64,000 nucleotides of DNA from Eledone cirrhosa (Eukaryota), in the NCBI GenBank assembly GCA_964016885.1, contig OZ024741.1:60016001-60080000 (forward strand), read 5' to 3'. Shown piece by piece: positions 2,142-57,432 of this stretch. Each line of letters opens with the position of its first letter. Positions within the stretch are counted from its first letter, which is position 1. Below the pieces are notes generated by a model. That model did not search any database, was not told the DNA's origin, and was given only the letters and a program-made list of their open reading frames with translations. A program made the translations under genes and the position numbers.

Positions 2142-2142
<1 letters not shown>

Positions 2143-2386
2143 TTTTCTTTATTAACCACAAGGGTTTACATAAAGTAGACATTAAGGACAGTACAGGACA
2201 ATACAGGACGGTACAAATGGGCATTTCTGCGTGTAAAAAAAAACAGAGGTTGAAATAAAATAACAAAGAAAAATTCCCCAATAGGGGGGAGACTTCCGAG
2301 GGACATCTGTGGAGAAAGCCCATTAAAAGACCACAGTGGCCCTGACCACCAGGGCAAGTGCCCTCTCCCAGTTTTCCACCTTTAAT

Positions 2387-4156
2387 TTACAGACACATAC
2401 TCATTCGGGCCATAATTGCTTGTCTCACCCATCTTTCAACAAAATGCTGGGAAGAGAGCACTTCCCTCTCTACCCTGATTTTCCTTTTCAAATGAAATTT
2501 GAAAAAGTTAATCAGAGCATCACCGAAGAGGTAAGTGCTCGTCTTCAGCCCTTTCAAACGTGTCCACCATACTATCTCTTTCGCCATGGCCACCAGACAG
2601 ATAAAAACTGCCTGCCCTTCCCGGCTAAAGGAGGAGGGCGGGGCAATCCTCACGACGGACTCAGATGATAGCCGGATCTGTCCTAAACGCGACAGCAGGT
2701 GTTCGACATAAACCCACAAGTCAGCAATTTTCGGACACTGGACGAGTGCGTGCAGGACGGTTTCGTCGCCCTGTGCGCATCTCGGACATGCCCGGCTGAC
2801 GGCACCTCCATGCCTGTAGAGCTTATCCCGAACTGGCAAGGCTCCTCGGTAGCACTGCCAGGCCAGAGATTTCTGGAAGTTGTCCATAGGCCCTGGCCCG
2901 AAAGTTCTTCCGAAGAGATTGGCTAGTTGATTTTCGTCGACGCCTAGAGTTTCCCCAAGTACGTCGTCGCTCTTCCCCTCCACTAATCCTCTATAGAACG
3001 CCGAGGTGGAGTTTCCAGTGATCACATTGCCCGATTGGTCGAGGGCTGTGAGCGCCTGAAGACATTCCAGTCTCCAGGCGCTCCCTCTCGGTCTTCGCTT
3101 GACCCAGGACTGCAGCTCCGTCAAGGAAACGAGCTGGGGAAATACGTGTCTAGCAAACGGCGACCACACCTGATCACCATCGAGGAAGAGGTGGAGATGT
3201 CGTAGCCTGAGCGCGTGCCTGCGCATCATCAGCCACGGCATGCCCAGCCCTCCACGTAGCGGATGTTGACAACAGATGGACCGCCTGACCATCGGAGCGC
3301 GTCCCTTCCACAAAAAGCGAAAGAGCAAACGCTCCAGCGCAGTCAGGCGAGGCTTAGGACAAGGTACGACGGTCAGGCGGTAGCAGATGGCAGACGCGAT
3401 GTACGCGTTAGCCACCTCCGCTCGACCTTTCAGGTATAGCTTCCTCTCCGCCCATTTCTGGGTGAGAGAAGCCACTCTGCTCGTCACCTCGTCCCAGTTT
3501 CTGTCCGTCTGGAGGTCCGGACCGAACCAGACCCCTAGCAATTTAACCGGTCCGTCCGTCCAGCGTCCAACGACGCTGTTGGACGGCATGGACCTGCCTC
3601 TCGAGGTGCCGAGCTCCAATCGGTACCTGTCAGACAGTTCAAAACGCCTGAGCAGGTTGGTGAGGCACTTGCAGCCTCCACCCCTATCCGCTAATCCCAC
3701 ACAATCGCAGCATGCATCTAAGATCCCGTTCCAGTCGCCCAATAAGTCTAAAGAGCGGGACGTTCCAAGAAAGGTCTCCAGACGCCGGAAGAAATCAGGC
3801 CGCCCTGCTCCTGTCGGGGCATAGACGGCCACTAGCCTGAAAGCTTGCCCATCTCCGCTGGTCACGTCCAGCACCACCAGCTTACCCTCTGGGTCCAGGA
3901 AGATGGCCCGTATGGCGAGATCCAAACCTCACCGAAAAAGCACAGCAACTCCTCCCCCCGACCCAGGACGGCTGGGAGATGCGTACACATCGTAGCCGCC
4001 GAAGATCGGTGCGAAGGTCCGTGCTTCGGAGATTCTGGTCTCGCTGATGGCCACTACATCTATGTTTAGTGACCTGAGGTCGTTGAGCAGGTGACCCTGC
4101 TTCCATGACGAGCCCAAGCCACGCGCATTTATGCTGCCTATTCTGAGTGAGGTCAT
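2387..4156 (-). pseudogene. Tx1 ORF2 remnant: APE N-terminal part fused in frame to C-terminal region, RT core deleted at about 3615; frameshift near 3930
   Basis: ORF pieces 3929-4156 and 2387-3925; the junction DRYRL|ELGT skips sequence present in copies 2, 3 and family C. Confidence 0.88.
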
Positions 4157-4191
4157 GTTTAAAATAGAGTGGAAAAGATGGGAAAGACCAC

Positions 4192-6268
4192 TTACCGTAC
4201 TTTTGGTAGAGGAGGGATGGTTTTTACATCCCTTTTCACTTGATCGTCTGGTGAAGGGACCGTTGAATCGTCCCTTCGGCTGTTCGTCGGCTCTTCTAAG
4301 AGAATGTCTGAATATACTCTTCGATTGATAGTTCCTCCTAGGTCCCTGAAATCACCAACTGCGTTGGGGAATTTCGTTTTAATGTTTGTGTATTGTTTCT
4401 GTGCTATTTTTAGCAGTCTTATGTTAGTTGGCGTTTTGATTGGTGCTGGTATTATGTAGTCGTGTTGTGAAATGTCTGTGTGTTCAATTATGTAAGTCAT
4501 TAGTTTCTTGTTGTGTGTATTTATTGCCGTGCATTTGTTTTTCTGGGGGTGGGGTGTGGTTCTGCTATTTTCTTGTCGTTCTTGCTGGGTGTGTGTGTTT
4601 TGTTGTTGTGTTTGCGATGTTGGTGCTTGTGGTGGTGGGATTGTCGCCGGTGGTGATGGTGGTGCTAGTGTGGGTGGTGATGGTGTTGGTGGTGTTGTTG
4701 CTGTGGGTCTCTTTGCAGTAGACTTTACCCTTTTCTCATTTCTGTCCTCCCTTTTCAAAGGCGACGATGCGCTGCTTCTGCGTTTGTGCCTTCTTACGAT
4801 CTTTTGCCATCTCTCTCCCACCTCACACTCCATGTCTGATTCCGTGAGGTCGGGGAGGGGTACCAGCTCCACTCTTTCACTTGTTGTTGTTGGTGATGTT
4901 TGCACTGGAGTCTCTGTTGCAGCTGCATTTGGTATTGCTGTTGTTGTTGTTAATATTTCCACTGCTGCTGCTGTTTTTGATTTCCGTGGCGTGGGTATGG
5001 GTGCCACGGACCTATCGTTCCTGGTTGCCGCTTGTCCTGTTGCTGGTAACCGTGGAGCCGGTTTCGGAAGGAGGAGGGGTTCTCCTTTCTCAGGGTCTTC
5101 TCGTTGCAGAAGGCCCTGAGATGAGTCTTCGATCCACAGCGAAAGCATTTCGGGCGTTTTCCCTCAACACTTATGGGCAGTTGAGTGCCGTTATCGAAGT
5201 CTATCACATCCGGGATAGCTTCGATGCACTCCTGGTTGGTTTGGATTACCATCTCAATGGAGGTGCCGACCCAATCTTCTCTTACTTTTTTCTGTACTTG
5301 CAGTACAGTTGTTTTGTCCTCGATTCCGACGAGGACAGACGCGGCCTGCCAAGAATGGGCCATCCCGAGGGGACGTGGGTCAGTTTGACCCTCACAATTG
5401 TTTGCCCGCAATAGGAGGGCACCAACACCATTTCCTCGCTCCTTAGGGTCACTACGTATTGGGCCTTTGCCTCCTGGGGTATGGCAAAAAGTACGTCTAC
5501 GGTGGCATATTTTTTTACTCGGGTGATGTGCGTTTTCCGCTGCCACACAGACCCCAAGGCTTTTTGTATTTGAGCCTCTGTGGCTCTTTCCACCCTACGG
5601 GATTTTGTACTTACTGTACGGTACGTGACCGTACAGTGCTGTTGGGTTTCGAAAAATGTTTCCGCTGCCTTGCAGATTGGTCGGTGTCCAGTCTTTGTCA
5701 CCATCTTCTTCGCTTCCTCTAATTCCTCATTTGTTATGAGGATTGTTTCCAAGTTTTTCGCAATACCTGCAAATGAGATTGGTTTTTCTTTGCTGCTGTT
5801 GTTGCTGTTGTCGTCAGAGCTGCTGGTACTTTTGTTGTTGCTGCAGGTAATACGACTACTGCCTCCACCGCTGTTGCTGTGGTTGTTGTTGGTGTTGCTG
5901 CTGCTAATGCTGTTGTTGTTTATGCTGCTGGTGATGATGTTGCGGCTGCTACTGTTGTTTTCATTGTCACTGTTGCTGTTGTTATTACGGCTGCTACTGC
6001 TATTATTCCTGACGTCAGACGAATGAACTGGGTTTTCGTATTTCCTGCACACCTGTTTCGTCGCTGTCGTCGTCGTCGTGTAGAAATCTTGCACGCTTTG
6101 CACGAGACTTTTCTTTTCTTTCGTCGCTTGCGAAAGAGAAGGGAGGGAGAGAGACAGATTTAAAGAAGGGAGGGAGAGAGACAATCTTCTCTCTGATGTA
6201 GTGACGATTGAGGAAAAAGAAGACGGAATGAGTGGGAGTGACCTATGCAAATTCTTTTTCGTAGCCAT
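4192..6268 (-). pseudogene. Tx1 ORF1 (gag-like, zinc knuckle RPKCFRCGSKTHLRAFC), frameshifted into 3 pieces
   Basis: ORFs 5282-6316, 4950-5546 and 4192-5148; Asn/Ser/Thr-rich N-terminus and Pro/Thr-rich C-terminus. Confidence 0.85.
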
Positions 6269-6488
6269 GTTGTTTTTTTTTTTTGTTAAAAATAAATATT
6301 GGGTACAAAACCCCAATAAACAGTTATTTAACCCCGAAGGGCCAAATAACGGGCAGAAAGACCCCTCTCACGAGGAGGAGGGTGTTTTTGTCTACAAGTT
6401 GGTCTAAGTTTTAAACAATTTACAATTGTTATAGCGTTCAAAATTTACAGTACCTTACAGAGCCGAGCCTCCGTCAACCATAGCATTC

Positions 6489-6521
<33 letters not shown>

Positions 6522-6522
<1 letters not shown>

Positions 6523-9205
6523 TTTTCTTTATTAACCACAAGGGTTTACATAAAGTAGACATTAAGGACAGTACAGGACAATACAGGACGGTACAAATGG
6601 GCATTCTGCGTGTAAAAAACAGAGGATGTAACAAAATAACAAAGAAAAAATTCCCCAATAAGGGGGGAGACTTCCGAGGGATATTTGTGGAGAAAGCCCA
6701 TTAAAAGACCACAGTGACCCTGACCACCAGGGCAAGTGCCCTCTCCCAATTTTCCACCTTTAATTTACAGACACATACTCAGAGAAGGCCCATTCATTCG
6801 GGCCATACTTGCTTCTCTCACCCATCTTTCAACAAAATGCTGGGAAGAGAGCACTTCCCTCTCTACCCTGATTTTCCTTTTCAAATGAAATTTGAAAAAG
6901 TTAATCAGGTCATCACCGAAGAGGTAATGCTCGTCTTCAGCCCTTTCAAACGTGTCCACCATACTACCTCTTTCGCCATGGCCACCAGACAGATAAAAAC
7001 CGACTGCCCTTCCAGGCTAAAGGAAGAAGGCGGGGCAATCCTCACGATGGACTCAGTTGATAGCTGGATCCGTCCCACACGCGACAGCAGGTGTTCGACA
7101 TAAACCCACAAGTCAGCAATGCTCGGACACTGGAAGAGTGCGTGCAGGACGGTTTCGTCGCTCTGCGCGCATCTCGGACATGCCCGGCTGACGGCACGTC
7201 CTTGCCTGTAGAGTTTATCCCGAACTGGCAAAGCACCTCGGTAGTACTGCCAGGTCAGGGATTTCTGGAAGTTGTCCATAGGCCCCGGCCCGAGAGTTCT
7301 TCCGAAGAGATTGGCTAGTTGATTTCCGTCAACGCCTAGAGTTTCCCCGAGTACGTCGTCGCTCTTCCGCTCCACTAATCCTCTATAGAACGCCAAGGTG
7401 GAGTTTCCACCGATCACATTGCCCGATTGGTGAGGGCTGTGAGCGCCTGATGACATTCCAGTCTCCAGGCGCTCCCTCTCGGTCTTCACTTGACCCAGGA
7501 CTGCAGCTCCGTCAAGGAAACGAGCTGGGGAAATACGTGTCTAGCAAACGGCGACCACACCTGATCACCATCGAGGAAGAGGTGGAGATGTCGTAGCCTG
7601 AGCGCGTGCCTGCGCATCATCAGCCACGGCATGCCCAGCCTCCACGTAGCGGATGTTGACAACAGATGGACCGCCTGACCATCGGAGCGCGTCCCTTCCA
7701 CAAAAAGCGAAAGAGCAAACACTCCAGCGCAGTCAGGCGAGGCTTAGGACAAGGTACGACGGTCAGGCGGTAGTAGATGACGGACGCGATATACGCGTTA
7801 GCCACCTCCGCTCGACCTTTCAGGGATAGCTACCTCTCCGCCCATTTCTGGGTGTGAGAAGCCAACTTGCTCGTCACCTCGTCCCAGTTTTTGTCCGTCT
7901 GGAGATCCGGACCGAATCAGATCCTGAGCAATTTAACCGGTCCGTCCGTCTAGCGCCCGACGACGCTGTTGGACGGCAGGGACCTGCCTCTCCAGGTGCC
8001 GAGCTGCAGGCCCACCGACTTTCTCTGGTTGATCATTGCTCTTGTCACCGCTTCGTATTCTCTTAGTGTAGTGCCGATCGCCTCGATGTGTTTTGCGTTC
8101 GACACCACTACAGTGACATCGTCCGCAAATGCTGACACGGATCTTCCGCATCCTAGTTCGCGCGGGACCCCCCTCAACGTCTCCAGTTTGTGCAGTAATG
8201 GCTCGAGAGTCAATACGTACAAGAGGGACGAGAGGGGACATCCTTGGCGGACCGAGCGCATGATGTTGAAAGATGACCGTTCACTCTCACCACAGAGCAG
8301 ATGTCGCTGTGCATGGCAGCGATCCAGCCTCTGAAGACCGGCCCAAAACCAGCCGCCCTCAGGACTGCCGCTAGTTAACGATGGTCGACCCTATCGAAAG
8401 CTTTCGACTGATCTAAATTGATCAAGGACCCACCCGTGCCAGGTTCCCTAGCTACCCTCCCTACGATGTATCGCATGAGGTGGAGGTTGTCGAGTATGGA
8501 TCTGTCGGGAATGGCGCATGTCTGCGCCTCTACCACCAGACCACCAACGACATGCGCCAACCTCTTTGCTAGCACCTTGGCCAACATCTTGAACTCTGTG
8601 TTTAACAGAGTTATGGGCCTAAAATTATCTATGTTATCCCCCTTGTTCGGATCCTTTTCCCAGCAGCGGCACAGCTCCTCGGCTCACAGAGCTCGGAATT
8701 CTCCCGTTCTGTTGCCAGTTGCAGTAGACGTCCGCCAAGAGGCCTCCGAACAAGTCTGGCATCTGTACGTAAAGTTCATAGGGCAGACCATCCAAACCAG
8801 GCGATTTACCCCTTGTGCAGCTAGTCATTGCCTCCCGTAATTCAGCGGCTGTTATCGGCTTTACTCAACACTCCGCCTCAGTGGCCGAGAGCCGCGGCAG
8901 TGCGTCGAGGTAGACACTAAAATCCATCCCTCGATCCGGCCCGCTGCTGCCCCCGAACATTGAGCGAAGTGTCGCTGAAAAGCTTCACACATTTGCCCGG
9001 GATCGAGTAGCATGCGCCCGTCGTAGTCCACCAAGGACCGGATCGTGGCTTTGTTGCCACGATGCGCCTCCGCCACTCGGGCCCATTGAACGGCTTTCGT
9101 CCCCTCGAGTCTGAGAGCACGCACCCTAGCTCTGACAACGCAGCCTTCGTGCTTTGCATTGAAGAATTGATCAAGGGCCAATTTCGCCGCAAGTACGTCG
9201 GTCGC
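6522..9205 (-). mobile_element. Tx1 family A, copy 2 (3' half, degraded RT, 5' part deleted)
   Basis: Near-identical 3'UTR to copy 1; RT motifs KSPGLDG, LDQSKAFDRV, RQGCPLS, AFADD. Confidence 0.92.
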
Positions 9206-12135: not shown

Positions 12136-12191
<56 letters not shown>

Positions 12192-12222
12192 GAAATTTTA
12201 GACATTAGACATGATTTCTAAC

Positions 12223-12280
<58 letters not shown>

Positions 12281-12281
<1 letters not shown>

Positions 12282-13210
12282 GAAATTGCTCCCGTAAGTT
12301 TTTTGATTTTTAACATATTTAAATCAATTGTGAAAGAACAATTCTTAGCACAAATGTTGCATAAAGGCACCGAATGAGGTCCCATAAAGTTTCGGATCCA
12401 TATTATATTGTTGTATCCATATTATATTGTTGTATCGCTCAAATATTCAATTTTGTATGATATATTTTGTATTCAAAAAAAGAAAATGGTTATAAATGGA
12501 ACAAAACACCCTCTGTCTACACTATATAGAACAGCGGCAATTTCAATTTCACCAACACCAGAAACTTGATACACTACCTATCCCATCACACTAAATATAA
12601 CGGCAACTTCACCGGCATCATAATAATAATTACTATTATTATTGTCTCAAATTTAAAAAAATGTTTAATTCAAATTTTACGGGAATATGTCAACACAAAA
12701 TATAATGAAAATATATATTAAACATACGAACACAAACTCATAGATACTATATCAGTAACCACAACACCACCGCTGCCACCATTCCACCACATCCATCATC
12801 GCCGCCACCACTCATTCAATGCTACTGACACTATTCCCCTGTTAACTTGAGAGAGAAAAGGGAAGGTGGTGGTAGCACTAGACAAGAGAGAGGCTAGCAA
12901 AAGATATAAATAGATTGACTTGGTGACCTTGCCACGGACAAACGTCTACATCAACAATTATGGGACTGCTGGCTCACCCCTTCCTCACCAACAATATAAA
13001 AAGCCCCGGCACCACCACCGACATAGCCAGCAGCAATAACAGCCAACTACAACAAAAAGTATATTATATTATTGTAATGCACTGGGTGATTGCTGGCCTT
13101 GTCCCTGGAGTGGAGACAATTATTAATAATTTCATTCTTAAGCCACGCAATGCTCACATTAAGGAACCACTCATGATAATAACAATTTAAAAAAAAACAA
13201 CAAAAATAAA
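12281..13210 (+). other. Shared 5' leader upstream of Dong-A (Tx1-5'UTR-like start, (CAC)n-rich decayed ORF1-like part, SINE tail fragment, A-run)
   Basis: 12281-12720 aligns with 50700-51150; 12590-13210 aligns with 45998-46740; begins directly after (TAA)n. Confidence 0.75.
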
Positions 13211-16200
13211 ACCCCGTGACCAAGAAATACCGGGATGGCGGCCGGCGGGGAATAGCCATGTCTCTAGGGGAGAACGACCCCTCTAGTCTTGGTTGACACT
13301 CGTTCTAGAAGTGGTAACACGAAAAGATTACCCCTTGGCGGATAAGGATAAAACGCGACAAAATAAAGTAGATGTCTAATGATGAAATCTCATACCGGAT
13401 CGGCCGTCACCCGGGTAAAAAAGGGCCGCGTCCCTCAGAGAGGAACCAGACTGGGGTCGAAAAATCAGCTAATGGTTCAAACCTTCCCATCACTTCGGAG
13501 CTGGAGACCTCCCATAACCGGAATACTCCTACTGTTGGCCCTCCATGCTCACCACCAAGAAATCCAAAGAAAAAGAGAGAAAAATGGTCAAGGGAAGATA
13601 ATAAAGAAGTCCTTGAGGCTTTCTATACTGCCATGTACTACCCATCAAATACATCGAATACAGAGCAAACATATATCAACTGGAAAAAGAAACATCCCGA
13701 AAACAGAGGCTATATTGACAGTAACAAACTAGCCAATATACGAAGAAATATTGTAAGAAAAAAGTTACTAACTGATATAGAAATTGATCAGATCAAGCTA
13801 GTAGCACAAAGTCAGCGAAGGGAAAATGAAGCACGTGTCAGTGAAAACGAGGTAAACTGTAACACTTCGAATCCCAGAGTTGGGGCGGAATCACTGGCAA
13901 CAGAACAAATTAAAGAAAGGAGCGAAAAAGTGGAGGGAGTGCATGCTCAGGATGAAACTCCAAATGAAAATAATGAGATCGTAAATGATAAAGAAATGAA
14001 TGAGAATGAACTTGCCAACTTGAAGGATGAAATTATGATCGAATGGATGAAAATGAAAGAAACTGACATGGGGGAACGAGACACCCTCCCTAAGATCCAG
14101 AACTCCAAACAGAACCAAAAGATAATACACAAGACTAACATAATTCTCAAAAACATTATCATCACAAACAAAATAAACATTACTGACTTAAATCATCTCT
14201 ATTATGCATCGGCTAAAGTCACCACTCACTTATGTGGAGTGAAGATGAAAAAACAAAGGAATTCCCACAAGAAATCTACTTGGCAAGATAACATCAATCG
14301 CCAAATAAACCTTCTCCGATCTGACATAGAAATTTTAACAAACTATAAAGTAGGTGAACATGTTAAACAAACTAAACTTAGAAAATTGAAAAAAAAGTAC
14401 AGTATAAGATCAACATGTGACATAGACATGCTGATAGAAACAATCAAGCAAAAAGTGTCGGCCAAAGCTGCTCGTATAAGGCGCTTTGAAAAACGATCTA
14501 GATTCTATAAGGACAATAATATGTTCAAAAACAACCAAAGAAACTTCTACAGAAAAATTGGTAAGTCAACAATAACTGCTAAATCAATACCACCCAAGGA
14601 GGAAGTGCAAGAATTCTGGGAAAAGATCTGGGCCGAAGAAAAAGTTCATAACATACATGCCCCATGGATAGACAGACAAATGAAAGAAACAGCTCACCTT
14701 GAAGAACAAACATGGGAAAATATAACAGTTGAACAGCTGCGCTTGGCTCTAAGAAAAACCAGCAAATGGAAATCCCCAGGAAAAGACAAAATACAAAACT
14801 TTTGGATAAATGCCTTCACAGAGTCTCATGAGCTGTTGGCCCAACTTTACAATGAAATAGTTAAGGAGCCAGAAAAGATACCATCATGGCTAGTTAACGG
14901 CATTACATTCCTGCTACCGAAGAATGATGAGACAAACAATCCCAAAAATTACAGACCGATAACCTGCTTGACCACAATGTATAAAATTTTAACATCAGTC
15001 CTAACTGAATACACATATGACCACCTGATAACAAATGACCTATTTCCCATTGAGCAGAAAGGGTGTAAACGAGGCTCATATGGCTGTAAGGATCAGCTTC
15101 TGGTTAACAAAATGATACTGGAAGATTGTCATAATAGACACAAAAATCTATCGATTGCTTGGATAGATTATAAAAAAGCATTTGATAGTTTGCCACACAG
15201 TTGGATTGAAAAATGTTTAGAGATTTTCAAAATATCCCCCGTTGTCAGGAGGTTTTTGTCATTCAGTATGAGGACATGGAGAACGACACTCCTTTTGAAT
15301 AGTGAAACAAAATCACTGGAAGCTGGAGAAGTTAACATTAATTGTGGAATTTTTCAGGGTGACTCTTTATCACCGCTTTTATTCTGCATCGCACTTATAC
15401 CATTAAGTAAAATGCTCAATGAAACAAAACATGGATATAGAGTCTATGACAAAACCATTAATCACCTGTTCTACATGGATGACCTGAAACTATTCGCAAA
15501 AAATGATGAACAATTGCAAGGGCTATTATCCACTGTGAAGCAGTTCAGTGATGACATTAAAATGGAGTTTGGACTGGATAAATGCGCCAAAGCAACGTTC
15601 ACCAGAGGAAAGCTGCTGAAGAGTTCAGACATTAATCTTGATCGGGGGAACGTGATAAGAGAGCTTGATCAAGAACAAACTTACAAATATCTAGGTGTTT
15701 GTGAAGGAGACGGAATCAAGCACTCGACAATGAGGGAAAGGATAAGGAAGGAATGTTACCGCAGAGTCAGAGCAATCTTAAGAACGGAATTGAATGCAAG
15801 GAATAGGATCGATGCCATAAACACGCTTGCCATACCAGTAGTAACCTACAGTTACAATGTCATCAACTGGTCAAGCACAGAGATCCGTAGGCTCGATACA
15901 AAAATCCGAAAATTCTTAACCATGCACAGAATGCATCACCCTAAGGCAGACATAGATAGAATATATCTCCCTAGGAAAGAAGGAGGACGTGGGTTAATCC
16001 AGTTAGACATTGCGTTGAAAACTGCAACAATTGGATTATCCACATATCTAAGGGAATCACATGATTGGATGATCAAACTCGTTTTGAAACACGAAAGCAC
16101 CAAAAGATCATATTCCATTACAAAAGATGCACAAAGATACAGTAATGGACTACAAATTTCAGAAGTCCCATTTACTGCTGAAATGGAAAACACAGAAAAA

Positions 16201-17163
16201 GCAAAGCAGGTAAAAGTAACTGCAAAGAAAGAACTGCTACAGAAACTGGCTAAGAAATGGCAAGAAAAGCCTCTGTATGGAAAATACCCAGAGCGAGCTA
16301 ACAATCCTGATGTTGACAAAACTTTAACCCATCAGTGGTTGGCATCCTCTGGACTGAAATCGGAGACTGAAGGACTGATTATCTCCGCACAAGATCAGTG
16401 TCTGCCAACAAAAAATTACCAAGCCAACATAATAAAAAATGGGTGCAGCCCATTATGCCGTGTATGCAAAAAACAACCAGAGACCATTGACCATATAATT
16501 TCAATGTGCAGTCCTATAGCTCCAACCGAATACCTAAACAGGCATGACAGAGCTGCACAATACATACATTGGATAATGTGTAAGCATTTTGACCTGCCCC
16601 ATCAAAAGAATTGGTGGGAGCATCAACCACTTCCCATACTTGAAAAAGATCACATCTCAATCTTGTGGAACTTTAGCATCCAAACAGACCGAAAAATAGA
16701 TGCAAATAGACCTGATATAATATTGAAGGACTTTCAAAGGAGGGTATGCCTGCTAATTGATATGTCTGTTCCAATAGACAAGAATGTATCTATAAAAACA
16801 TTTGAAAAATTGAGCAAGTATAAGGACCTGGAGATAGAAATTGGAAAAATGTGGAAATTGAGAACTAAAACAATACCAGTGGTTGTAGGCGCTCTGGGAA
16901 TGATACCTAAGGGGTCTAACGACTACTTATCGCAAATCCCAGGAAACCCGCGTATAGGAGAAATACAAAAGATAGTACTAATGGGAACTGCCCATATACT
17001 AAGGAAGATCCTGTCAATATAAGTACATCACAAGTCTAAACACTAAGGATGCATGTGTGAATATGTGTGTTCTTTCTTGAACATGGCGGACCTTGTTGTC
17101 TCTTGAGGTCACTGGTTGTGACTTGGTGATAACTCGTATAAACATAAAGCAAGATAAATGCAA
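13211..17163 (+). mobile_element. R4/Dong family A, copy D2, apparently intact
   Basis: Structured 5'UTR, uninterrupted ORF, about 140-nt 3'UTR ending in (TAA)n. Confidence 0.95.
13372..17022 (+). CDS. R4/Dong polyprotein, 1216 aa: reverse transcriptase + CCHC zinc knuckle + restriction-like (PD-D/ExK) endonuclease
   Basis: KSPGKD, NYRPITCL, WIDYKKAFDS, GIFQGDSLSPLLF, YMDDLK, YKYLG; CRVC..ETIDHIISMC; RHD, NRPDII, IDMSVP, EKLSKY. Confidence 0.95.
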   Translation: MSNDEISYRIGRHPGKKGPRPSERNQTGVEKSANGSNLPITSELETSHNRNTPTVGPPCSPPRNPKKKREKWSREDNKEVLEAFYTAMYYPSNTSNTEQTYINWKKKHPENRGYIDSNKLANIRRNIVRKKLLTDIEIDQIKLVAQSQRRENEARVSENEVNCNTSNPRVGAESLATEQIKERSEKVEGVHAQDETPNENNEIVNDKEMNENELANLKDEIMIEWMKMKETDMGERDTLPKIQNSKQNQKIIHKTNIILKNIIITNKINITDLNHLYYASAKVTTHLCGVKMKKQRNSHKKSTWQDNINRQINLLRSDIEILTNYKVGEHVKQTKLRKLKKKYSIRSTCDIDMLIETIKQKVSAKAARIRRFEKRSRFYKDNNMFKNNQRNFYRKIGKSTITAKSIPPKEEVQEFWEKIWAEEKVHNIHAPWIDRQMKETAHLEEQTWENITVEQLRLALRKTSKWKSPGKDKIQNFWINAFTESHELLAQLYNEIVKEPEKIPSWLVNGITFLLPKNDETNNPKNYRPITCLTTMYKILTSVLTEYTYDHLITNDLFPIEQKGCKRGSYGCKDQLLVNKMILEDCHNRHKNLSIAWIDYKKAFDSLPHSWIEKCLEIFKISPVVRRFLSFSMRTWRTTLLLNSETKSLEAGEVNINCGIFQGDSLSPLLFCIALIPLSKMLNETKHGYRVYDKTINHLFYMDDLKLFAKNDEQLQGLLSTVKQFSDDIKMEFGLDKCAKATFTRGKLLKSSDINLDRGNVIRELDQEQTYKYLGVCEGDGIKHSTMRERIRKECYRRVRAILRTELNARNRIDAINTLAIPVVTYSYNVINWSSTEIRRLDTKIRKFLTMHRMHHPKADIDRIYLPRKEGGRGLIQLDIALKTATIGLSTYLRESHDWMIKLVLKHESTKRSYSITKDAQRYSNGLQISEVPFTAEMENTEKAKQVKVTAKKELLQKLAKKWQEKPLYGKYPERANNPDVDKTLTHQWLASSGLKSETEGLIISAQDQCLPTKNYQANIIKNGCSPLCRVCKKQPETIDHIISMCSPIAPTEYLNRHDRAAQYIHWIMCKHFDLPHQKNWWEHQPLPILEKDHISILWNFSIQTDRKIDANRPDIILKDFQRRVCLLIDMSVPIDKNVSIKTFEKLSKYKDLEIEIGKMWKLRTKTIPVVVGALGMIPKGSNDYLSQIPGNPRIGEIQKIVLMGTAHILRKILSI

Positions 17164-19014: not shown

Positions 19015-19300
19015 TAAACGGAAAAGAAAATGCTAAGTTTTACCGGTTGCGCATTTCTAATGCTTTTCAAAAATAATTTTGAGATAGAGCGTCCGTGATG
19101 TTTGCTCAGATCAGAGCAAACATCACGGACGCTCTATCTCAAAATTATTTTTGAAAAGCATTAGAAATGCGCAATCGGTAAGACGTAAAACCAAAACTGA
19201 ATACTAACCAATAGTATTACTAATTCTCACTTATTCCTAATTAAACTATTTTTCACTGTGAAAAATTTGTCAGCATTTTCTTTTCCGTTTACCAATATAT
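19006..19300. repeat. Nested inverted repeats: 68-bp-arm palindrome (19040-19107 / 19114-19181) inside a 29-bp inverted repeat (19006-19034 / 19272-19300), between (TA)n tracts
   Basis: Direct reverse-complement comparison. Confidence 0.9.
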
Positions 19301-25017: not shown

Positions 25018-25621
25018 CAGGTCACCAGTTGGTGCTACTGGTAATATGTATCCCAGTACAACCTGTCTCATGGTCGGGTCGTTGGCGACTAAACTGGCAA
25101 CCCCACCAAGGTTTCTTGGTGAGGAGGGTGACTTTGGACATCCTGCAGGACTAAAAACAAAACCTGTCAAAGGGCAAAGGAGCTCTTAAGAGTCAATGGC
25201 CATCCAAAATCACCGGGAGAGATGGCCCTTTAGCCTTTGTCAAGGCAGAATTCTAGGAGAAGGAAAACTCTGATATAACACCTGCAACTCTGATGGTATC
25301 CAATGATGTTAACTTGTTCTTCTTTTAGGTAAATATCATCTTGGTTAAGAGAGTGGGACTGGCTTTGTGCAGTTCCTTTGCTCACTATAAAAGCTTCACG
25401 GCACAGGCATTGCTTTATATCTGGAGATCACACTGCACTTGTCGTCACATGGTACCATGGGCCCAGCACTATATGTCAATAATTGTCACATGTGTAGTGT
25501 TTGTACCAGAGTTTTCAAGTCGCTGGCTGAACTAAAAAGTCACTCGTTCAGCGCATCGGTAGGGGTTCTCCTACATGGATATAAAGTAGTGGCCGTACTC
25601 GAAAACGAGTTGGCAGCCAAC
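25018..25621 (+). mobile_element. Bipartite non-autonomous RTE derivative (5'UTR + extreme 3' end) in a (TATG)n tract
   Basis: RTE 5'UTR motif CTAGGAGAAGGAAAACTCTGA at about 25253; C-terminal C2H2 finger [17 protein letters not shown]; no RT in between. Confidence 0.7.
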
Positions 25622-25899
25622 ATGTATGTATGTATGTATAATGCAGCAAATATCAGAGATAAAGTGTAATCATGTTTTCTTGACACGTGTGTTTCTGCAG
25701 AACCGAACAAAAGAAAGTATGAAATACGGAAAACAATAACAGAACCAAACAACAAAAAACTTGTCAAGCTCCATTAATAATATATATAATTAATATTTTT
25801 ATATTATTTTCTGATCTTTGACTCTTTTTTGCCGTCATTGGAGAAAATTGAAAACAATCTTCATTCTAAGAAGTGATGCCATTATATTATATTTTAAAC

Positions 25900-26150
25900 C
25901 GATGTGTCCTTGAGCAAGACGCGTTATTTCAAGTTAATTCTGTCTACATAGCTGTATAAAAGACGCTGCAACATCACTAGTGCCAAGCACTATCGACTGT
26001 GCCCTTGCCTTTTGTTGGGTGAATAGGCATTCGCATACGTGGAGGACTGCTGCTCATTTACACACTACCCTTCCTATGCCTGTGCCTCTGTGTGGGAACC
26101 CATAGTCGGTCGTGACAAAAGAGGGGTTGGGAATGCTTTACTTTTACCAA
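25900..26150 (+). mobile_element. SINE fragment (head missing)
   Basis: GTGTCCTTGAGCAAGAC core-type motif; CTTTACTTTTAC tail. Confidence 0.45.
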
Positions 26151-26541
26151 GATCAAACTGCCACTAATCGGGCCTGTTTGAGATGCACACAGAGCGAGAA
26201 AAGAATTATGCACGTATATGGTTTGTCCATTGCTCACATCTACAGTGTTGTTGAATAGGTGTTATCTAACGTAGGACACACCTGGCTCTCTACTGAGGCC
26301 ATTGCGTAGATAGCCTGGTCGCTTTCAATTGGCCAGGAAAGTATAGTGTCTGATGTTTATGGTAAAAGAAGTTGATGACATGGAGGTGAGTGAAAATATT
26401 AAAAGCTGATATCCTCTTATTCGGCCAAGCTCTAATTGTCCATTTCAAGTTCTAACTCAAGAGGTTGAGATAATAGAGGGTATATTTTGCAAAGGTGCGT
26501 GCGTACACTCATGTAGATATTCAGAATCCTCATCCCCCATC

Positions 26542-26672
<131 letters not shown>

Positions 26673-26718
26673 GAAAGGTATAGAAAACATTGTAGCGAAA
26701 AGCCAACAGTATTCCATA

Positions 26719-26751
<33 letters not shown>

Positions 26752-26949
26752 TCCTTCACTACATAAAACTAGCGCAAAAAAATAACCATGATTGATAATA
26801 GCAAGCTGGAACGGAACAATAAACAAAACAGGAGTGCACTATGGCATGCACCGGCAAATAACATTACAGTCCTCGGGAAAAATAATAATAATACGGGATA
26901 TAGTAATAGACAGGATTTAATTCATTCGGACCCGGAGTTGAACCACCCC

Positions 26950-27615
26950 CAATAATAACTGTTACTGCAGAGATCCAGCAAACTGCCCTATGCAGAAGAG
27001 AGGACTTCAAATTAACATAGTGTAAGGATGTAGGGTTACTACTAGTAATAGAAATTATAATCAGGTTCAACAGTGACCAATTTTAAGGAGGGGTGGTACA
27101 ATCATTGCTACAGGCTTAATAGCATTGATAAGCGGAATAGCACGGCAGTATGCGAGCTTATATGGATGCCTAAGCAGGACTGAATATAACATTTATTGTC
27201 GTGGTCCTGGCTTACAATCACATAGCCGTATTAGGGACGATCTTTTGCGAATGTTTGTTATCTTTACACCAAGTGGTAATTCTAGAAATTGGGGCCATAT
27301 ATCAATAAATTCTCCGATTTCTTTATTACAAGTAGACACACAATAAACGTTCCCAAAACTCATTAAGTTATAGATTATAGCCTATACATTTTGAAGCCAC
27401 CTCCTCCATCAACGTAAGCATGACCCACATATTACATCATTTCAGTATCACCTAGAACAATGGTGTGTAGGTACATTGGTTTATCTGGACCTATCCTTTA
27501 AAACGGCAAGAGCTCAACAATCGGCATCCTGACCCTTTATTAAATTATCATACTCCAAGTATCGAGTACTCTGTAGAGTAAATGTCTAACCAGTTTCTAA
27601 CCGAATCCATCCTGA
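26950..27615 (+). mobile_element. Degraded Penelope-like 3' fragment (GIY-YIG endonuclease + terminal region)
   Basis: With one stop and one frameshift reads CYCRDPANCPMQ..NIV*GCRV...GSTVTNFKEGWYNH...RNSTAVCELIW; ends in (TA)n. Confidence 0.72.
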
Positions 27616-27639
27616 TATATATATATATATATATATATA

Positions 27640-28710
27640 TAATAAAATGAGTCCCTCATCAGTGATTTGCCGACGATCATAGATATTTCATTGCATTAAA
27701 AATCATATACCTCACGTCGGTGCAATAATAACCAAAATAAGTTATTAGGACAATTAAAACGCGTAAAGCGAGTGAGACAGGAGAACAACAAAGAGTATGG
27801 CTAACCAGGGGAAAGAAACAAGCTTCAAAAATTATTCTGTTTAGCATAAGCTAGGTGAATATATGAGCGCTTTTAGAACAGACCCGACACGAGCGAAGGT
27901 TATGTGCGGAGAGAGAAAAATAGCCTTCGTGGCGTACAGGATGAAATGAAGAGAAGAGAGAGAAACAGTGAGTGAGTGAAAGTGTGAGGAAGAGTTAACT
28001 GACATGACAGAGGGGGAGAAACAGAGAGAATGGGGAGAGAAAAAAACACAGAATCGCAGTGGTAAATATATGTAATAAAATATAGAGAAAAATACTGCAG
28101 GTAGCACCTGTCATGTCAGTTAACTCTTCCTCACACTTTCACTCACTCACTGTTTCTCTCTCTTCTCTTCATTTCATCCTGTACACCACGAAGGCTATTT
28201 TTCTCTCTCCGCACATAACCTTCGCTCGTGTCGGGTCTGTTCTAAAAGCGCTCATATATTCACCTAGCTTATGCTAAACAGAATAATTTTTGAAGCTTGT
28301 TTCTTTCCCCTGGTTAGCCATACTCTTTGTTGTTCTCCTGTCTCACTCGCTTTACGCGTTTTAATTGTCCTAATAACTTATTTTGGTTATTATTGCACCG
28401 ACGCGAGGTATATGATTTTTAATGCAATGAAATATCTATGATCGTCGGCAAATCACTGATGAGGGACTCATTTTATTACATGTTATCCATGTGCTACCTG
28501 CAGTATTTTTCTCTATATTTTATTACATATATTTACCACTGCGATTCTGTGTTTTTTCTCTCTCTCTTACTGTTCCCCCTTCTCTCTGTTTCTCCCCCTC
28601 TGTCATGTCAGTTAACTCTTCCTCACACTTTCACTCACTCACTGTTTCTCTCTCTTCTCTTCATTTCATCCTGTACACCACGAAGGCTATTTTTCTCTCT
28701 CCGCACATAA
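27640..28710. repeat. About 370-bp inverted repeat (27640-28010 / 28108-28478) plus partial tandem copy (28491-28710); PLE pseudo-LTR-like arrangement
   Basis: Near-perfect reverse-complement arms; CTGATGA at 28456 without a following GAAA. Confidence 0.85.
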
Positions 28711-28877
28711 TAATCTATCATACAGTTACACACTCACACATATAAACGAACACATATACATATGTGTGTGTGTATATCAAATAATATCTAAATATCTATC
28801 AAAAAACTTTTTTTCTATTAATATCTCTCTCCCAATATCTATTCATTTACTCATAGAATATTGTTATAGCCTCCTCC

Positions 28878-28934
<57 letters not shown>

Positions 28935-29027
28935 TATTGGTGTGTGTATGTGTGTGTATACATATATATATATACACATATATATACACATATATATACA
29001 CATATATATACACACATATATATATAT

Positions 29028-29559
<532 letters not shown>

Positions 29560-33579: not shown

Positions 33580-33609
33580 ATTAATAATAATAATAATAAT
33601 AATAATAAT

Positions 33610-39206: not shown

Positions 39207-39226
39207 AATAATAATAATAATAATAA

Positions 39227-39299
39227 TTGTTTCTACTTTTGGCAAAGGCGAGCAAATTACCCAGTACATTACTGGTACTTTATTTTATGTACTGGGTAA
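39227..39299 (-). mobile_element. SINE 3' tail fragment with 14-bp inverted duplication
   Basis: Matches 55319-55382; ATTACCCAGTACAT / ATGTACTGGGTAAT. Confidence 0.7.
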
Positions 39300-40511: not shown

Positions 40512-40513
<2 letters not shown>

Positions 40514-45997: not shown

Positions 45998-46740
45998 ACT
46001 GTGTACACTAAATATAACAGCCAGATAATGACAATTTCACCACCACCACCACCAATCCCAGCATCATAATAATAATTACTATTATTATTGTCTCAAGTTT
46101 TAACAAAATGTTTAATTCCAATTTTACGGGAATATCTGAACGCATATATTAAACATACGCGGCACAAACGCATAGATACTACAGATCAAACAAAACTAGT
46201 CTATTCAACACAGATATTAAACATACGCGACACAAACGCATAGATACTACATATCAAAAAAAAAAAAAACTCAGTAACGAACACGCCACCGCCGCCACCA
46301 CTCCATCCATCATTACTACCACTACCCCATAACCGCCGCCACCACTCCTTCATTGCTACCACCACTATTCCCCTGTTAACTTAAGAAAGGGAAAGGTGGC
46401 GGTATCACTAGACAAGGGAGAGGCTAGCAAAAGATATAAATAGATTGACTTAGTGACCTGGCCACCGGCCAAACGTCAACAACTATGTCACTCCTGGCTC
46501 CCTCTTCCTCACCAACAACATAAAAATCCCCAGCACCACCACCGACATAGCCAACAACAATAACAGGCAACTTCAGCAAAAAGTATATTATATTATTGTA
46601 ATGCACTGGGTGATTGCTGGCCTTGTGCCTGGAGTGGAGACAATTATTATTATTAATCATTTCATTCTTAAGCCACGCAATGCTCACATTAAGGAACCAC
46701 TCATGATAATAACAATTTAAAAAAAAAAAAAAAAAGAAAA
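45998..46740 (+). other. Second copy of the Dong-A 5' leader (5' part lost)
   Basis: Aligns with 12590-13210, including the SINE-tail fragment and A-run. Confidence 0.8.
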
Positions 46741-50665: not shown

Positions 50666-50667
<2 letters not shown>

Positions 50668-52120
50668 GAAGACACACACATGGTGGATAGAAGGTCGAGA
50701 AATCGCTCCCGTAAGTTTTGATTTTTTAACATATTTAAATCAATTGTGAAATAACAATTCTTAGTACAAATGTTGCATAAAACATCCGGCTTGAGTCCCA
50801 AAAAATTCGGATCCATAATATATTGTTATATCGCTCAAATATTTAATTTTGTATTATACATTTTATATTCAAAAAAGAAAATGGTTATAAATGGAAGAAA
50901 ACCCCCTCTGTCTCCACTATATAGAACAGCCAAATAACAGCAATTTCACCAACATCAGAAACTAGATACACCACCTACCCCATCACCCCTCTGTGTACAC
51001 TAAACACAACAGCCAGTTAACGGCAATTTCACCATCAGCACCACCAATCTCAGCATAATAATAATAATTACTATTATTATTGCCTCAAATTTTAGTTTGA
51101 ACAAAATGTTTAACACCAATATTAAAGTAATATGTCAACACATATACGCGACTAACGATAATTTCACCACCTATACCACCACGACTACCACAATGAAAAC
51201 TCTGGTAAAGTCGACTCAAATTTCTACTCCAACTTCAACACCATCACTACAATAATACGACCACATCACCATCACCACTGCCTCATTATCGCTACCGCCG
51301 CTATTCTCTCCCACTACCTCTTCTAGTTATTGCTAGCACAGCACTATCACCACCACCACCACCACCACCACCACCACCACTGCCTCATTATCACTACCAC
51401 TGCTATTCTCCCCCGCTACATTGTAGAATTCCCACTAAAAGAGGAAAACATATAAATAGACTGAATTGATGACCCGGTCAAAACCAAAAAAAAAAAATCA
51501 AAGTCAAGTTTTAGTTTTAACAAAATCTTTAATTCCAATATTAAGGGAATATGTCAACACATATACGCGACTAATGATAATTTCACTAAAGATAATTTCA
51601 CCACCAATACCACCACCACTGCCACGATGAAAACTCTGTTCAAGCCGACTCAAATTTCTACTCCGTCTTCAACACCATCACTACAGTAATACGACCACAT
51701 CACCAGCACCACTGCCTCATTATCGCTACCGCCGCTATTCTCTCCCACTACCTCCTGCTAGTTGCTGCTAGCACAGCACCGTCACCACCATCACCACCAC
51801 CACTGCCTCATTATCACTACCGCCGCTATGCTCTCCCGCTAGCCCCTGCTACATTGTAGAATTCTCACTAAAAGAGGAAGGCATCAAAATATATAAATAG
51901 ACTGAATTGATAACCCGGTCAAAATAAAATAAAAAATCAAAGTCAAAGCAGCACAGCAACAACGAAAAACGTAAAGGAAATAAAAATGAAGAGAAAAACA
52001 AACGGACGGACAGAGAAGGGAAGGGAAAAACTAAGTCAGACATTCAAACACTACGTTACAATGAAACTTATGCTTATTCATTTTGGGGGTTTTTTCTGCC
52101 TGTTTGTTTGTTTGTTTAAT
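50666..52120 (+). other. Tx1-5'UTR-like leader upstream of Dong-B, with about 420-bp internal tandem duplication (51089-51507 / 51509-51946)
   Basis: 50700-51150 aligns with 12281-12720; starts immediately after (TAA)n. Confidence 0.72.
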
Positions 52121-53570
52121 ATGGGTTCGTCTACAGCTTGATAATACCACACAAAAGTCACGTGGAGTGACGAAACCACAGGAGACGAGTAATTCACCGG
52201 TGGTTATTTAACCATACATTCGCCAATCCTCGATAAGAGTGTTTAAATGTCGAAACTAAACAGTTCGAATAACGGTGAAATGGAGACTAGAATGTCATGT
52301 GACAGACTCTCACCCAACAGGTGCTCCTTGGCTCAGCAGCAGGGACCTGGCTGTCAACCAAATACTGCTGGTGTCGGAGGAAGAAGAAGAAGGAAAGGGA
52401 CCAGAACCAACTGGACGAAAGAATTGAATAGAACTGTTATGCAATGTTACCTGAAGAGTAACCCCAAGGAGAAAGGCTATAGGAAAAGGATGCATAACAC
52501 ATGGAACGAGATTGGTCCATTTAAATTAGATGAACAAAAACTGGCCAGGCAGGCTCGGGTAATAAGAACTAATGGGTGGATAAGAGAGCTGGAACTAGAG
52601 GAACTGAGCAGAGAGATTAGCTTGGAGATGGAGAGTGGCGTATGCCAGGCAAACGAGCCAGTGGTAAATGAAGGTGAAGAGGTCGAGAGAACGGAGGAAC
52701 CACCCGAAGCAGACAATGATCTGAATGCTGAGATAAATAATACCTGGAACAGAGATACGGCCAGTGAGGAGATGAATTCTGACTGGCTAGGACAAGAATT
52801 GGTTCATATCCTAAACTTAGTGGTAGATGAATTGAACAATGATAATGGGAGACCTATAAACCTAAGATTTGTAGACAGGAAAAAGTTAAAAGAAACAACA
52901 GCTAAGGTAAACAAAGTCATCCCATACCTTGAGGCGAGGAGCCTTCACCAGTGCAACAATATCTTCAAAGCAACAGCAAATACGGTGAGGAAACTACTTG
53001 GTCTAAAAGCGAGAGGAAACAACAGACAGGAAAGAGCAGAGCCTTGGTGGAAGAAACGACTGAGTGGTCAAATCAGGAAAATGAGAAATGACATTGGAAA
53101 GCTTGAGTCCCTACTGAATGGGACACTAAAAACATAGACACTAAAAATAGACTGGAAATAAAGTACAAAACTAGTAGGAAAAAGCTAAATATTATCATAG
53201 AGGAACTGAAGCAACGCATTGTAGTAAAGAGTGCAAAAATCAGACGATACGAGAACAGAGTCAGTCAGTATAGACAGAACCGCATGTTTGACAACAACCA
53301 GAAGATGCTGTTTGGACAGCTTGAAGGGAAAGAAAGAGGCAACAACTTGATCCCTGAGGCGGAACAAACTAAAACATTCTGGAGAGGAATATGGGAGCGG
53401 GATGTTAAACATAATTACCAGGCAGTGTGGATTGAGACATTACAGAAGGAGATCAGTGAACAGGCACACCAACAAACTGATTTGAGTACCACAGTTGAAA
53501 CTCTTAATTGGCAGGCCCAAAAACTAGCCAACTGGAAATCACCTGGCCCAGATGGTGTGCAGGAGTATTG
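52121..53570 (+). mobile_element. R4/Dong family B, 5' portion (ORF from 52247), 3' part deleted
   Basis: TNWTKELNRTVMQCY, PWWKKRL, KSAKIRRY, WKSPGPDG; overlaps in sequence with 57481-57770. Confidence 0.88.
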
Positions 53571-55003
53571 AGGCCTCCGAACAAGTTTGGCATTTGTACG
53601 TAAAGTTCATAGGGCAGACCATCTAAACCAGGCGATTTACCCCTTGTGCAACTAGTCATTGCATCCCGTACTTCAGCGGTTGTTATCGGCTTTTCGCAAC
53701 ACTCCGCCTCAGTGGCCGAAAGCCGCGGCAGTCCGTCGAGGTAGACACTAAAGTCCATCCCTCGCTCCGGCCCGCCACTGCCCCCGAACAGTTGAGCGAA
53801 GTGTCGCTGAAAAGCTTCACACATTTGCCCGGGATCGAGTAGCATGCGCCCGTCGTGGTCCACCAAAGACCGGATCGTGGCTTTGTTGCCACGACGCGCC
53901 TGCGCCACTCGGGCCCATTGAACGGCTTTCGTCCCCTCGTGTCTGAGAGCACGCACCCTAGCTCTGACAACGCAGTCTTCGTGCTTTGCATTGAAGAATT
54001 GGTCAAGGGCCAATTTCGACGCAAGTACGTCGGTCGCGATGCCTTTGCTAAGCGCCTCATCTAATTTTCTAACTAATTCTCCCTCTGCTCTATTTTTCTC
54101 TATTGCTAAAGTCTTACTAAACCTAATGGACTCTATTCTAATTGCTCTTTTCAGAGCAAACCACCACATGTTGTTGACGATGGCCCCCGTCAACGCCCGC
54201 TTAACTAGTTCGCTAATCCGGTCTCTGTAGGCCTTGCGCGCTGGTAAGGACGCGTTTAGCTTCCAGTAGCCGGGTCCTCGTCTATGAAGCCTATCTAAGT
54301 CAAGCACACAGATCACGAATTTGTGGTCCGTGTAGCTGACTATCTTGAATTGTGGACAGCCTATGCTAGACCTATCTATTTCCCTACAAAATACTCTATC
54401 TAGATATGATCTGGATGACCCTATGCGATTTGTCCAAGTCCACATTGGTACATTCGGGAAATCCATTCGGTACCTGTCAGACAGTTCAAAACATCTGAGC
54501 AGGTTGGTGAGACTCTTGCACCCTCCTTCCCTATCCACTAATCCCACACAATCCCAGCGTGCATCTAAGATCCCGTTCCAGTCGCCCACTAACACTAAAG
54601 AGCCGGACGTTCCAAGAAAGGTCTCCAGACGCCGGAAGAAATCAGGCCGCCCTGCTCCTGTCGCGGCATAGATGGCCACTAACCTGAAAGCTTGGCCGTC
54701 TCCGCTGGTCACGTCCAGCACCACCAACTTACCTTCTGGGTCCAGGAAGATGGCCCGTATGGCAAGATCCAAACCTCTCCGAAAAAGCACAGCAACTCCT
54801 CCCCCCGATCCCGGACGGCTGGGAGATGCGCACACATCGTAGCCGCCGAAGATCGGCGCGAAAGCCTGTGCTTCGGAGATTCTTGTCTCGCTGATGGCCA
54901 CTACATCTATGTTTAGTGACCTGAGGTCGTTGAGCAGGTGGCCCTGCTTCCATGACGACCCCAAGCCACGCGCATTTATGCTGCCTATTCTGAGTGAGGT
55001 CAT
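53571..55003 (-). pseudogene. Open APE endonuclease + linker of Tx1 ORF2, truncated at the start of RT
   Basis: SINARGL, ISETR, GDWNG, SYLDRVF, YTDHK, GYWKLN, KSPGLDG. Confidence 0.88.
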
Positions 55004-55500: not shown

Positions 55501-57432
55501 TGTTCAAATTTAATGCTGTGTAGTGTGTATCGTTTTGGTTGTTTTGTTTTGTTTGCGTTTGTTGTGGGTTTGTTTCTGTTTCGCATTTTGGTGACTTTTG
55601 TGGTGTAGGTGATGGTGGTGTTGGAGTTAATGATGGTGATGGTGTTGATGGGGTTGGTGATGCTGGTGTGGATGGTGGCATATCTGTCCTAACTTTTTTG
55701 TTTCTTAGTTTATTTGTTTCCCTCTGTATTTTGTTTTTGGAGAAGGAAGGAAGAGAATTTTTTCTTTTTTGGTTTCTTTTTTTTTTCCGGATATCGTTTC
55801 CCACTCCTCGTCGTCACAATCTGTCTCCAGTTGTGATAGGCCGGGGAGTGGAAAATCCTCCATAGGCGTTAGTTTTGTTTGTGGCGTGGTGGATGGTGTA
55901 GGCGCTGGTGCTAGTTCTGAAGCGTCGGGTGGTGGTGGTGTTGGTTTTGCTGGTGGTGGTGGTGGTGTTGGTTTTGCTACTGTTGCTGGGGTTGTTGCTG
56001 TTATAGTTGCTTCTGTTGTTGCTGCTACAGTTGTTGCTGCCATCTCTGCTACTGGTGGTGTTGATGGTTGTGTCACTGGGGTGGGTAGGAGAGGTGGCCT
56101 CAACCTTTTAGCCTGAGGGCAGAAAGCCCTTAGGTGGGTTCCTTCACCACAAACGACACACCTAGGTCTTCTGCCCTCTAAAATTACCGTGAGGTGGCTG
56201 CCGTCAGTGAGGTCTATTACCTCTGGGATCTCCTCAATGCTTTTTTGGTCCGCTTGGATCAGGAGCTCCATCCCAGATCCGGACCAGTTCTCCTGCTTTT
56301 CTTTTGCTATTGCTATTATTTTTGTGTTGGCTTCGATGCCGGCGAGGACGGGCGCTATTAGCCAGGGAATTTCGATGGCGGGTGGAACGTGGGTCACCCT
56401 GATCTTTACGAGTCTCTGGCCACAATAGTTTGGGACGAGTGTGAAGTCGTCACATCTTAATGGGGCCATGGAGTGTTCTCTAGCCTCCTCTGGTGTTTCA
56501 AAGAACACGTCCACGGTTCCATACTTCTGCCCACGTCTGAGGTGGGTTTTTCTTGCCCACACATGTCCCAAAGCTTTTTGGATTTGGGACTCGGATGCCC
56601 GTTCCACTCGGCGCGATTTTACATTTATCGTTCGATACGACACGGTGCATAGGCGCCGATGCTCCATTTTATTAGGTGTGTGTGGGGGGGTGAGGCTGAC
56701 CCTGCACCCATCTTTCTTTACCATTTGTTTGGCATTTTCTAAATCCTCCTGAGTTACCGTAAATGCTTCGAACTGTTTTGCTACTATTGCAAAACTGAGG
56801 GTGGTTTTTATAATGTCATTGTTGTTGTTGTTGCTATCGTTATTTGTGTTAATATTAATTTTAGTTTCAGTTGTGGTGGTGGTGACGTCAGTCGTCTTTG
56901 GTGGGGAAGAGTCCATTTTGCTTGATTTGATTTCGACATCACGAGTTAATTTATTTTCTACTTCTTTTGTTTCTGTTGTCGCGGTGGTGGTTGGGTGGGT
57001 GGTTGTCGCGGTGGTGGTGGTGGTGGTGGTGGAGGCTTTAACACCTGCAGTCATTGGTAATGGCGGGAAATGAATGTCTGCCTGAAACAAATTTAAAATA
57101 TTGCTACTGCTTATATTTTTTTTGTGTTGGCAAACGTAGTAACATTTACAATGGTGGTGTCGGTGTGAGGTGTTAATTTGTGAGGAAGGCTTTCAGCTGC
57201 TTGGTGCAGAGGTGAATTAGCCATTTTTTTTCAAAGAAATTTTTTGATAATAATAAAAGTTTAAATTTTGGGCACAAGGCCCCAATCTTTTTGGGTGTCC
57301 TTTTTGGAAAACAATGTATGTGCGCTTATACACAGTTAACAATAAAATTTTCCATAAATGACAATTTTTAACAAACGTAAATAACAAATCTTTGCGGAGC
57401 TCACGATGATACGATTTACTACGTAGGTCGCC

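Follow-up and report, generated by a model that had tools for sequence, protein, structure and literature searches.

Two distantly related Dong families of retrotransposons in Eledone cirrhosa begin with a shared head of ~215 nt, ending in an ATG, that is collinear with the 5′ untranslated regions (UTRs) of Tx1 elements on the sense strand and above controls, and the Dong unit is retrotransposed with this head as its fixed 5′ end. We think it probable that the head was captured once from a Tx1 element, and we predict that it serves both families as an internal Pol II promoter.

Dong and Tx1 elements nested in microsatellite tracts

The window (the whole 64,000-nt stretch analyzed here) is a nest of elements sitting in (TAA)n/(TTA)n tracts. 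In plus-strand elements, one ORF encodes both RT and the motifs of a restriction-like endonuclease; as in R4/Dong elements, the endonuclease is C-terminal, there is no APE, and the insertions lie in (TAA)n. Among solved structures in the PDB, only R2 proteins matched. Minus-strand elements, the type considered as donor, have the Tx1/L1-group layout: a zinc knuckle in ORF1, and APE, RT, and zf-RVT in ORF2. Both names follow the labels of the preliminary description, together with the (TAA)n target and architecture for Dong and microsatellite targeting for Tx1, and not a tree with named references. The annotated features, in window coordinates, are the following.

About 2142-6488, 6522-9205, 33609-39227, 40512-45998, and 53571-57432, minus strand: annotated Tx1 copies
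6265..6488, minus strand: Tx1-A 5′UTR, used as comparison
12139..12280, plus strand: (TAA)n target tract ahead of Dong-A copy D2
12281..12489, plus strand: Tx1-UTR-like head, Dong-A type, 5′ end short by ~30 nt
12490..13211, plus strand: leader A body, with a 27-codon upstream ORF and CAC-rich DNA
13212..13371, plus strand: Dong-A core 5′UTR, GC-rich
13372..17022, plus strand: Dong-A single ORF, 1216 aa
17023..17190, plus strand: Dong-A 3′UTR and (TAA)n
45998..46740, plus strand: leader A of copy D3, headless, head-to-head with a truncated Tx1-B ORF1
50666..50884, plus strand: Tx1-UTR-like head, Dong-B type, near-complete, after (TAA)n; upstream ATG at 50881
51085..51946, plus strand: leader B, two tandem ~420-bp monomers, each ended by a TATA-like motif (51450, 51891)
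52125..53570, plus strand: Dong-B core 5′UTR and ORF start (ATG at 52247), interrupted at 53570
57218..57432, minus strand: Tx1-C 5′UTR, best match in the window to head B

The Dong-A head carries the motif GCTCCCGTAAG at 12288, and its 3′ end is an A-run with an upstream ATG at 12486. The leader A body that follows holds a TATA-like motif at 12904 and a 5′-truncated SINE end at 13074-13122, and the ORF contains RT (YMDD), a CCHC finger, RHD, and the PD..D and K..KY motifs of the restriction-like endonuclease, with no APE domain. The preliminary description had placed plus-strand leaders ahead of the Dong cores, and these are present at 12281-13211, 45998-46740, and 50666-52124. Its statement that leaders with their 5′ end present start right after (TAA)n agrees with the copies at 12281 and 50666; at 45998 there is neither head nor TAA, and the leader abuts Tx1 ORF1. 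The head motifs that it quoted are present, with ATGGTGGATAGAAGGTCG confined to the 50666 copy because the 12281 copy begins ~30 nt short of the family 5′ end; every annotated Tx1 copy in the window is on the minus strand, as it had reported.

At window positions 9203, 45998, and 53570, Tx1 and Dong are joined head-to-head, each without its 5′ part and with no intervening microsatellite, which suggests deletion at insertion or afterwards. A SINE ending in (TTA)n (55316-55500, minus strand; 13074-13122, plus strand) occupies the same tracts as Tx1, also lies inside Dong leaders in either orientation, and was possibly mobilized by Tx1. Long inverted repeats at 19034-19187 (154-bp palindrome), 27641-28710 (370 bp at 99%), and 25213-29439 (410 bp at 93%) are likely DNA transposon ends or fold-backs.

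The head and leader are part of the Dong unit

A best-hit search with the head (12282-12560) gave 41 matches from the 40 scored of 946 candidates, and all 30 of the loci fetched, one of them the window itself, continue through the leader into a Dong-A ORF with differing flanks. The junction between leader B and its core has a near full-length match at 40/40 scored places; leader B is carried by 30/30 loci fetched with this junction, in one to three or more monomers of ~420 bp. Since best hits are biased, heads were also sampled by an exact pattern in genome order (513 genome matches; reversed control, 0). Among the first 30, a Dong core is reached by 27, while two end in a monomer array at the locus edge and one is cut by an opposite Tx1; among 40 later heads, 39 (22 A, 17 B) run into a Dong N-terminus and one has nothing downstream. 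Overall, 66/70 position-ordered heads lead into a same-strand Dong core, and none of the 70 has a same-strand Tx1 ORF1 downstream.

Sampling from the core gave the same linkage. The Dong-A core pattern has 946 genome matches, and all of the first 30 have leader sequence upstream, none starting at the core; the leader exceeds 400 nt in 28 and is cut within its last 40 nt in two, and for 16 of the 30 the start falls no more than 10 nt from a single fixed 5′ end. That fixed start is kept by 48/70 heads in unrelated flanks. The leader-B/core junction is spanned by contigs in two of three runs of one other sample, and the composite element has an intact 1216-aa ORF, with copies 99-100% identical on several contigs. 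Two outcomes that the preliminary description had named as fatal to its proposal, a leader-Dong unit found only at this locus and a leader found mostly alone, are thus both refuted: the unit is present at many unrelated loci, and the head is almost never without its Dong core. Head pattern matches also occur ~5.0-5.3 kb apart (L158 and G000:C1:131.97-132.01 Mb), a spacing that suggests head-to-tail tandem arrays of full-length Dong-A.

The head resembles 5′UTRs across Tx1 families

The preliminary description had aligned the head by eye with the Tx1-A UTR, a pairing that proved marginal: for two heads against two copies, 11, 13, 2, and 34 of 500 shuffles reach the observed score. The one clear pairwise local alignment is that of head B with the Tx1-C UTR (0/500 shuffles, z 7.5); head A with the Tx1-C UTR is not clear (33/500). 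The likeness draws its significance instead from an older variant of the head and from profiles that span several Tx1 families. Against seven UTR families identified via ORF1 or window position, not via the head, the heads score z 3.7-7.0 (0/150 with both 10- and 20-nt block shuffles), inside the range obtained when each Tx1 family is left out in turn (z 3.5-9.3); antisense head scores against Tx1 UTRs are null. A hidden Markov model (HMM) built from Tx1 only picked out a third, older head variant (E 0.001), which belongs to an older Dong-B subfamily (Dong-B N-terminus at 25/30 loci, Dong-A at none). In a reciprocal search of 1.16 Mb of fetched DNA, this model recovered the older variant at E 3.5e-6, the only head type below 1e-4, the modern A and B heads being weak (median E 0.72), and each of the 13 best non-head matches of a heads-only HMM is a Tx1 UTR in sense (best E 7e-4; some of these loci overlap, and the next best other match has 5.4 bits).

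Composition-matched and real-genome controls agree, and the objection raised in advance, that the alignment might be no better than AT-rich shuffles, is refuted by the multifamily profiles. Heads score 94-113 on the Tx1 profile and Tx1 UTRs 82-115 (eight UTRs, one located by a head-derived pattern); upstream regions of protocadherins, a single host gene family, stay at background (n = 30; 69.8 ± 7.7, maximum 84), and genomic 220-mers ending in ATGG reach at most 80 (n = 244). Once stripped of the 5′ motif and the A-run/ATG, the head still gives z 2.5-7.8 over its middle 130 nt; the same segment of the head of Dong-C, a third family described below, gives z −1.1, and the Dong-C leader scores as background. 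When the head motif was required after (TTA)n, it retrieved mostly true Tx1 5′ ends with ORF1 downstream (reversed control, 0), including one subfamily with 16 identical bases in common with the head. The genome as a whole has 121 Cadherin_2 matches, with a dense protocadherin cluster at G000:C2:239.2-240.6 Mb.

The head is short (~215 nt) and about 29% GC, and even the nearest Tx1 UTRs are identical to it in only 64-70% of aligned columns, with many gaps. Tx1-A is therefore unsupported as the donor, and neither the TTA-anchored pattern search nor a tree, which has long branches, yielded a close donor family. The preliminary description had further likened the codons after the head (SPLYRTA) to the Tx1-C ORF1 start (SPLHQAA). 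This gained no support: an ORF1-core HMM run on 118 leaders gave a best match of iE 3.6, in antisense, and thus no ORF1 domain remnant, and blastn and tblastx comparisons of leader bodies with Tx1 ORF1 and the ORF2 start returned only SINE and low-complexity DNA. Two candidate remnants, ASKRYK*IDL and MVINGRKP, were rejected as not significant.

A likeness that is collinear over ~200 nt, persists without the 5′ motif and A-run/ATG (where Dong-C gives its negative z), takes in one arm of a hairpin as well as a start codon unused by Dong, and is missing from the protocadherin host controls argues against convergence, in which Dong and Tx1 would have evolved similar internal promoters separately under the same host factors in AT-rich DNA. 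Convergence would accommodate the low identity and AT richness, and coexisting L1s have been suggested to share host-imposed 5′ motifs (PMC5381506, in part). The short motif GCTCC..AAG may by itself be convergent, since the unrelated Dong-C leader bears a similar one at the same distance from its start (+39). On balance, we judge separate origins rather unlikely.

One head, probably exchanged between two Dong families

Dong-A and Dong-B proteins are 47% identical in the RT and 33-40% elsewhere, with 55-60% identity in RT DNA; between their heads, median identity is 88.7% (782 pairs). Head identity is 90.9% within A, 91.9% within B, about 74-75% for the older variant, and at least 68% over all heads. 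In a tree of 68 heads and four Tx1 UTRs, which left out heads without the motif or a detectable core and is rooted on long branches, all heads group on one side (98/98) with the older B variant at their base, and A and B labels (rechecked for 15 rows) interleave with at least five label changes. The preliminary description had envisaged separate acquisitions by two Dong families; the heads instead form one group, probably exchanged between families, and one capture followed by swaps fits better than two captures.

Two other candidates for a further Dong family were rejected, L142 (58%) being a frameshifted Dong-A and L268 a Dong-B. Dong-C (L339:2927-4000, L343-L367) is a third family, nearer to Dong-A (50-57% protein identity) than Dong-B is (about 40%). 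We rejected the view of Dong-C as leaderless upon finding that it has its own leader of ~1.3-1.5 kb with its own fixed start, core-linked within the locus at 18/25 loci and unlike Tx1 UTRs save for the short motif at +39. Because it has a leader of its own, Dong-C does not serve as an outgroup for the ancestral state.

Every examined Tx1 family has the same UTR type ahead of a true ORF1 start, and in most of them a palindrome or hairpin with a GC core lies ~40-90 nt before the ORF1 ATG (57218-57432, minus strand; L019, L247, L098). Folding energies of this hairpin are −9 to −24 kcal/mol in Tx1 UTRs and weaker in heads (−4 to −7), and the terminal ATG of the head opens no long frame in Dong (27 codons in the window Dong-A). 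Transfer from Tx1 to Dong is the likelier direction, given this UTR type in all Tx1 families, the stronger Tx1 hairpin, the ATG unused by Dong, and the unrelated leader of Dong-C. That Tx1 took the head from a Dong ancestor, or that both took it from a third element or host gene, would agree with the lack of an identified donor and with the position of all heads outside the four Tx1 UTRs in the tree; we find it unlikely, as Tx1 families are more deeply diverged in their UTRs (with ORF1 about 30-55% identical) than the heads are from one another, the hairpin and ORF1 start codon are intact in Tx1, and the family closer to Dong-A has the different leader.

Upstream Tx1 neighbors of the 70 position-ordered heads are on the opposite strand in 17 cases and on the same strand in none. 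Simple read-through capture is accordingly not the usual geometry, and these counts favor either template switching or an infrequent insertion, in sense, within a TTA tract; sense insertions do occur, since a SINE end is fixed in the TTA tract of leader A.

The head as a predicted internal promoter

Early-branching RLE retrotransposons are believed to depend mostly on co-transcription and ribozyme cleavage, and a 5′ end that stays fixed in unrelated flanks implies either an internal promoter or self-cleavage. An Rfam search for a ribozyme was negative, and our own descriptor, run without a positive control, found no HDV-like fold in the Dong-A core 5′UTR. The head would likely act as a borrowed promoter for Dong. 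L1-group 5′UTRs are internal promoters, and those of frog L1s have GACGC and GAGCTCCG motifs in common near the start (PMC5381506, in part); short motifs in the head resemble these, a resemblance that we treat as a lead only. The Dong-B core 5′UTR (52125-52246; L187) has repeated short stems followed by GAAA, with no Rfam match.

A Tx1-derived head might also be a passive passenger or an RNA-processing signal, with transcription supplied by the flanks or by the TATA-like motif (ATATAAATAGA.TGA) of the leader monomers. This motif, found in the window at 12904, 46434, 51450, and 51891, is kept in all three leader types and amplified in the tandem monomers of leader B, each of which it ends, and 16 upstream ATGs precede each window Dong ORF, both of which favor this reading. 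But transcription starting at the TATA-like motif would lose the head from new copies, 48/70 heads hold the same 5′ start in unrelated flanks, and the ribozyme searches (Rfam, and the descriptor without a positive control) detected none, so a passenger head seems improbable. Although both element types crowd into the same microsatellite clusters and one of the 40 later heads has no Dong downstream, the linkage of head, leader, and core across many contigs (66/70 heads and 30/30 cores), with the leader-B junction bridged in two runs of one other sample, leaves almost no room for the leader being an independent nonautonomous element or a local duplication.

A model for capture and its relation to known systems

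In the model that we propose, a ~215-nt head was captured once from a Tx1 element and later shared by two distant Dong families. A Tx1 5′UTR with the low-complexity start of ORF1 would have become fused to Dong RNA, through a switch of template by the RT or through a Tx1 insertion, in sense, within a TTA tract of a Dong leader, the Tx1 body then being lost. Serving Dong as an internal Pol II promoter, the captured head would have freed it from read-through transcription and ribozyme cleavage and would afterwards have been swapped repeatedly between Dong-A and Dong-B by recombination. We give about even chances to the broader reading, in which Dong dropped the ribozyme/read-through lifestyle through capture of a Tx1 promoter and trades the module between families, and Dong-C did likewise with an unrelated leader.

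Template-switch chimeras such as U6-L1 and LINE-SINE composites join a foreign RNA 5′ end to a retroelement body. The Dong units resemble them in having a foreign 5′ end fused in sense and differ from them in being autonomous: the family has an intact 1216-aa ORF, and its copies are 99-100% identical. Replacement of 5′UTRs and recombination between families are known within L1: vertebrate L1 lineages gain new 5′UTRs, and their families recombine 5′ regions (PMC5381506 and PMC3600994, each in part), and mouse L1 has tandem monomers in its leader (PMC9022269, in part), as does leader B. In vertebrates, the recipient is itself an L1, whereas here a single-ORF element with a restriction-like endonuclease is the recipient and an APE-type Tx1 the likely donor, on the other side of the RLE/APE split among non-LTR elements (PMC4640811, in part). 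The elements share the (TAA)n target with silkmoth Dong, and the single ORF with RT and restriction-like endonuclease with silkmoth Dong and Ascaris R4 of the R4 clade. Those elements start with a self-cleaving HDV-like ribozyme (PMC3774820, in part), in contrast to the 1-2 kb leader with a Tx1-like head, and no detected ribozyme, found here.

The process of 5′UTR recruitment is known; what would be new here is its crossing of the APE/RLE divide. No report of cross-group 5′UTR capture was found in the literature searched, which had Repbase and most subscription papers outside its scope. Three cephalopod repeat papers (PMC13282606, PMC9115989, and PMC8967140) all list Dong-R4, and two of them L1-Tx1, with the leader unmentioned in their accessible parts; the leader may already sit, without comment, inside a curated repeat consensus.

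A captured L1-type promoter, if confirmed, would explain how an RLE element scattered among microsatellites is expressed at will. As a defined ~215-nt construct with natural variants, the head is well suited to reporter work. Our results suggest that control modules are transferable among retrotransposon groups that lie very far apart and, if the capture is real, regulatory modules cross one of the deepest splits among non-LTR elements.
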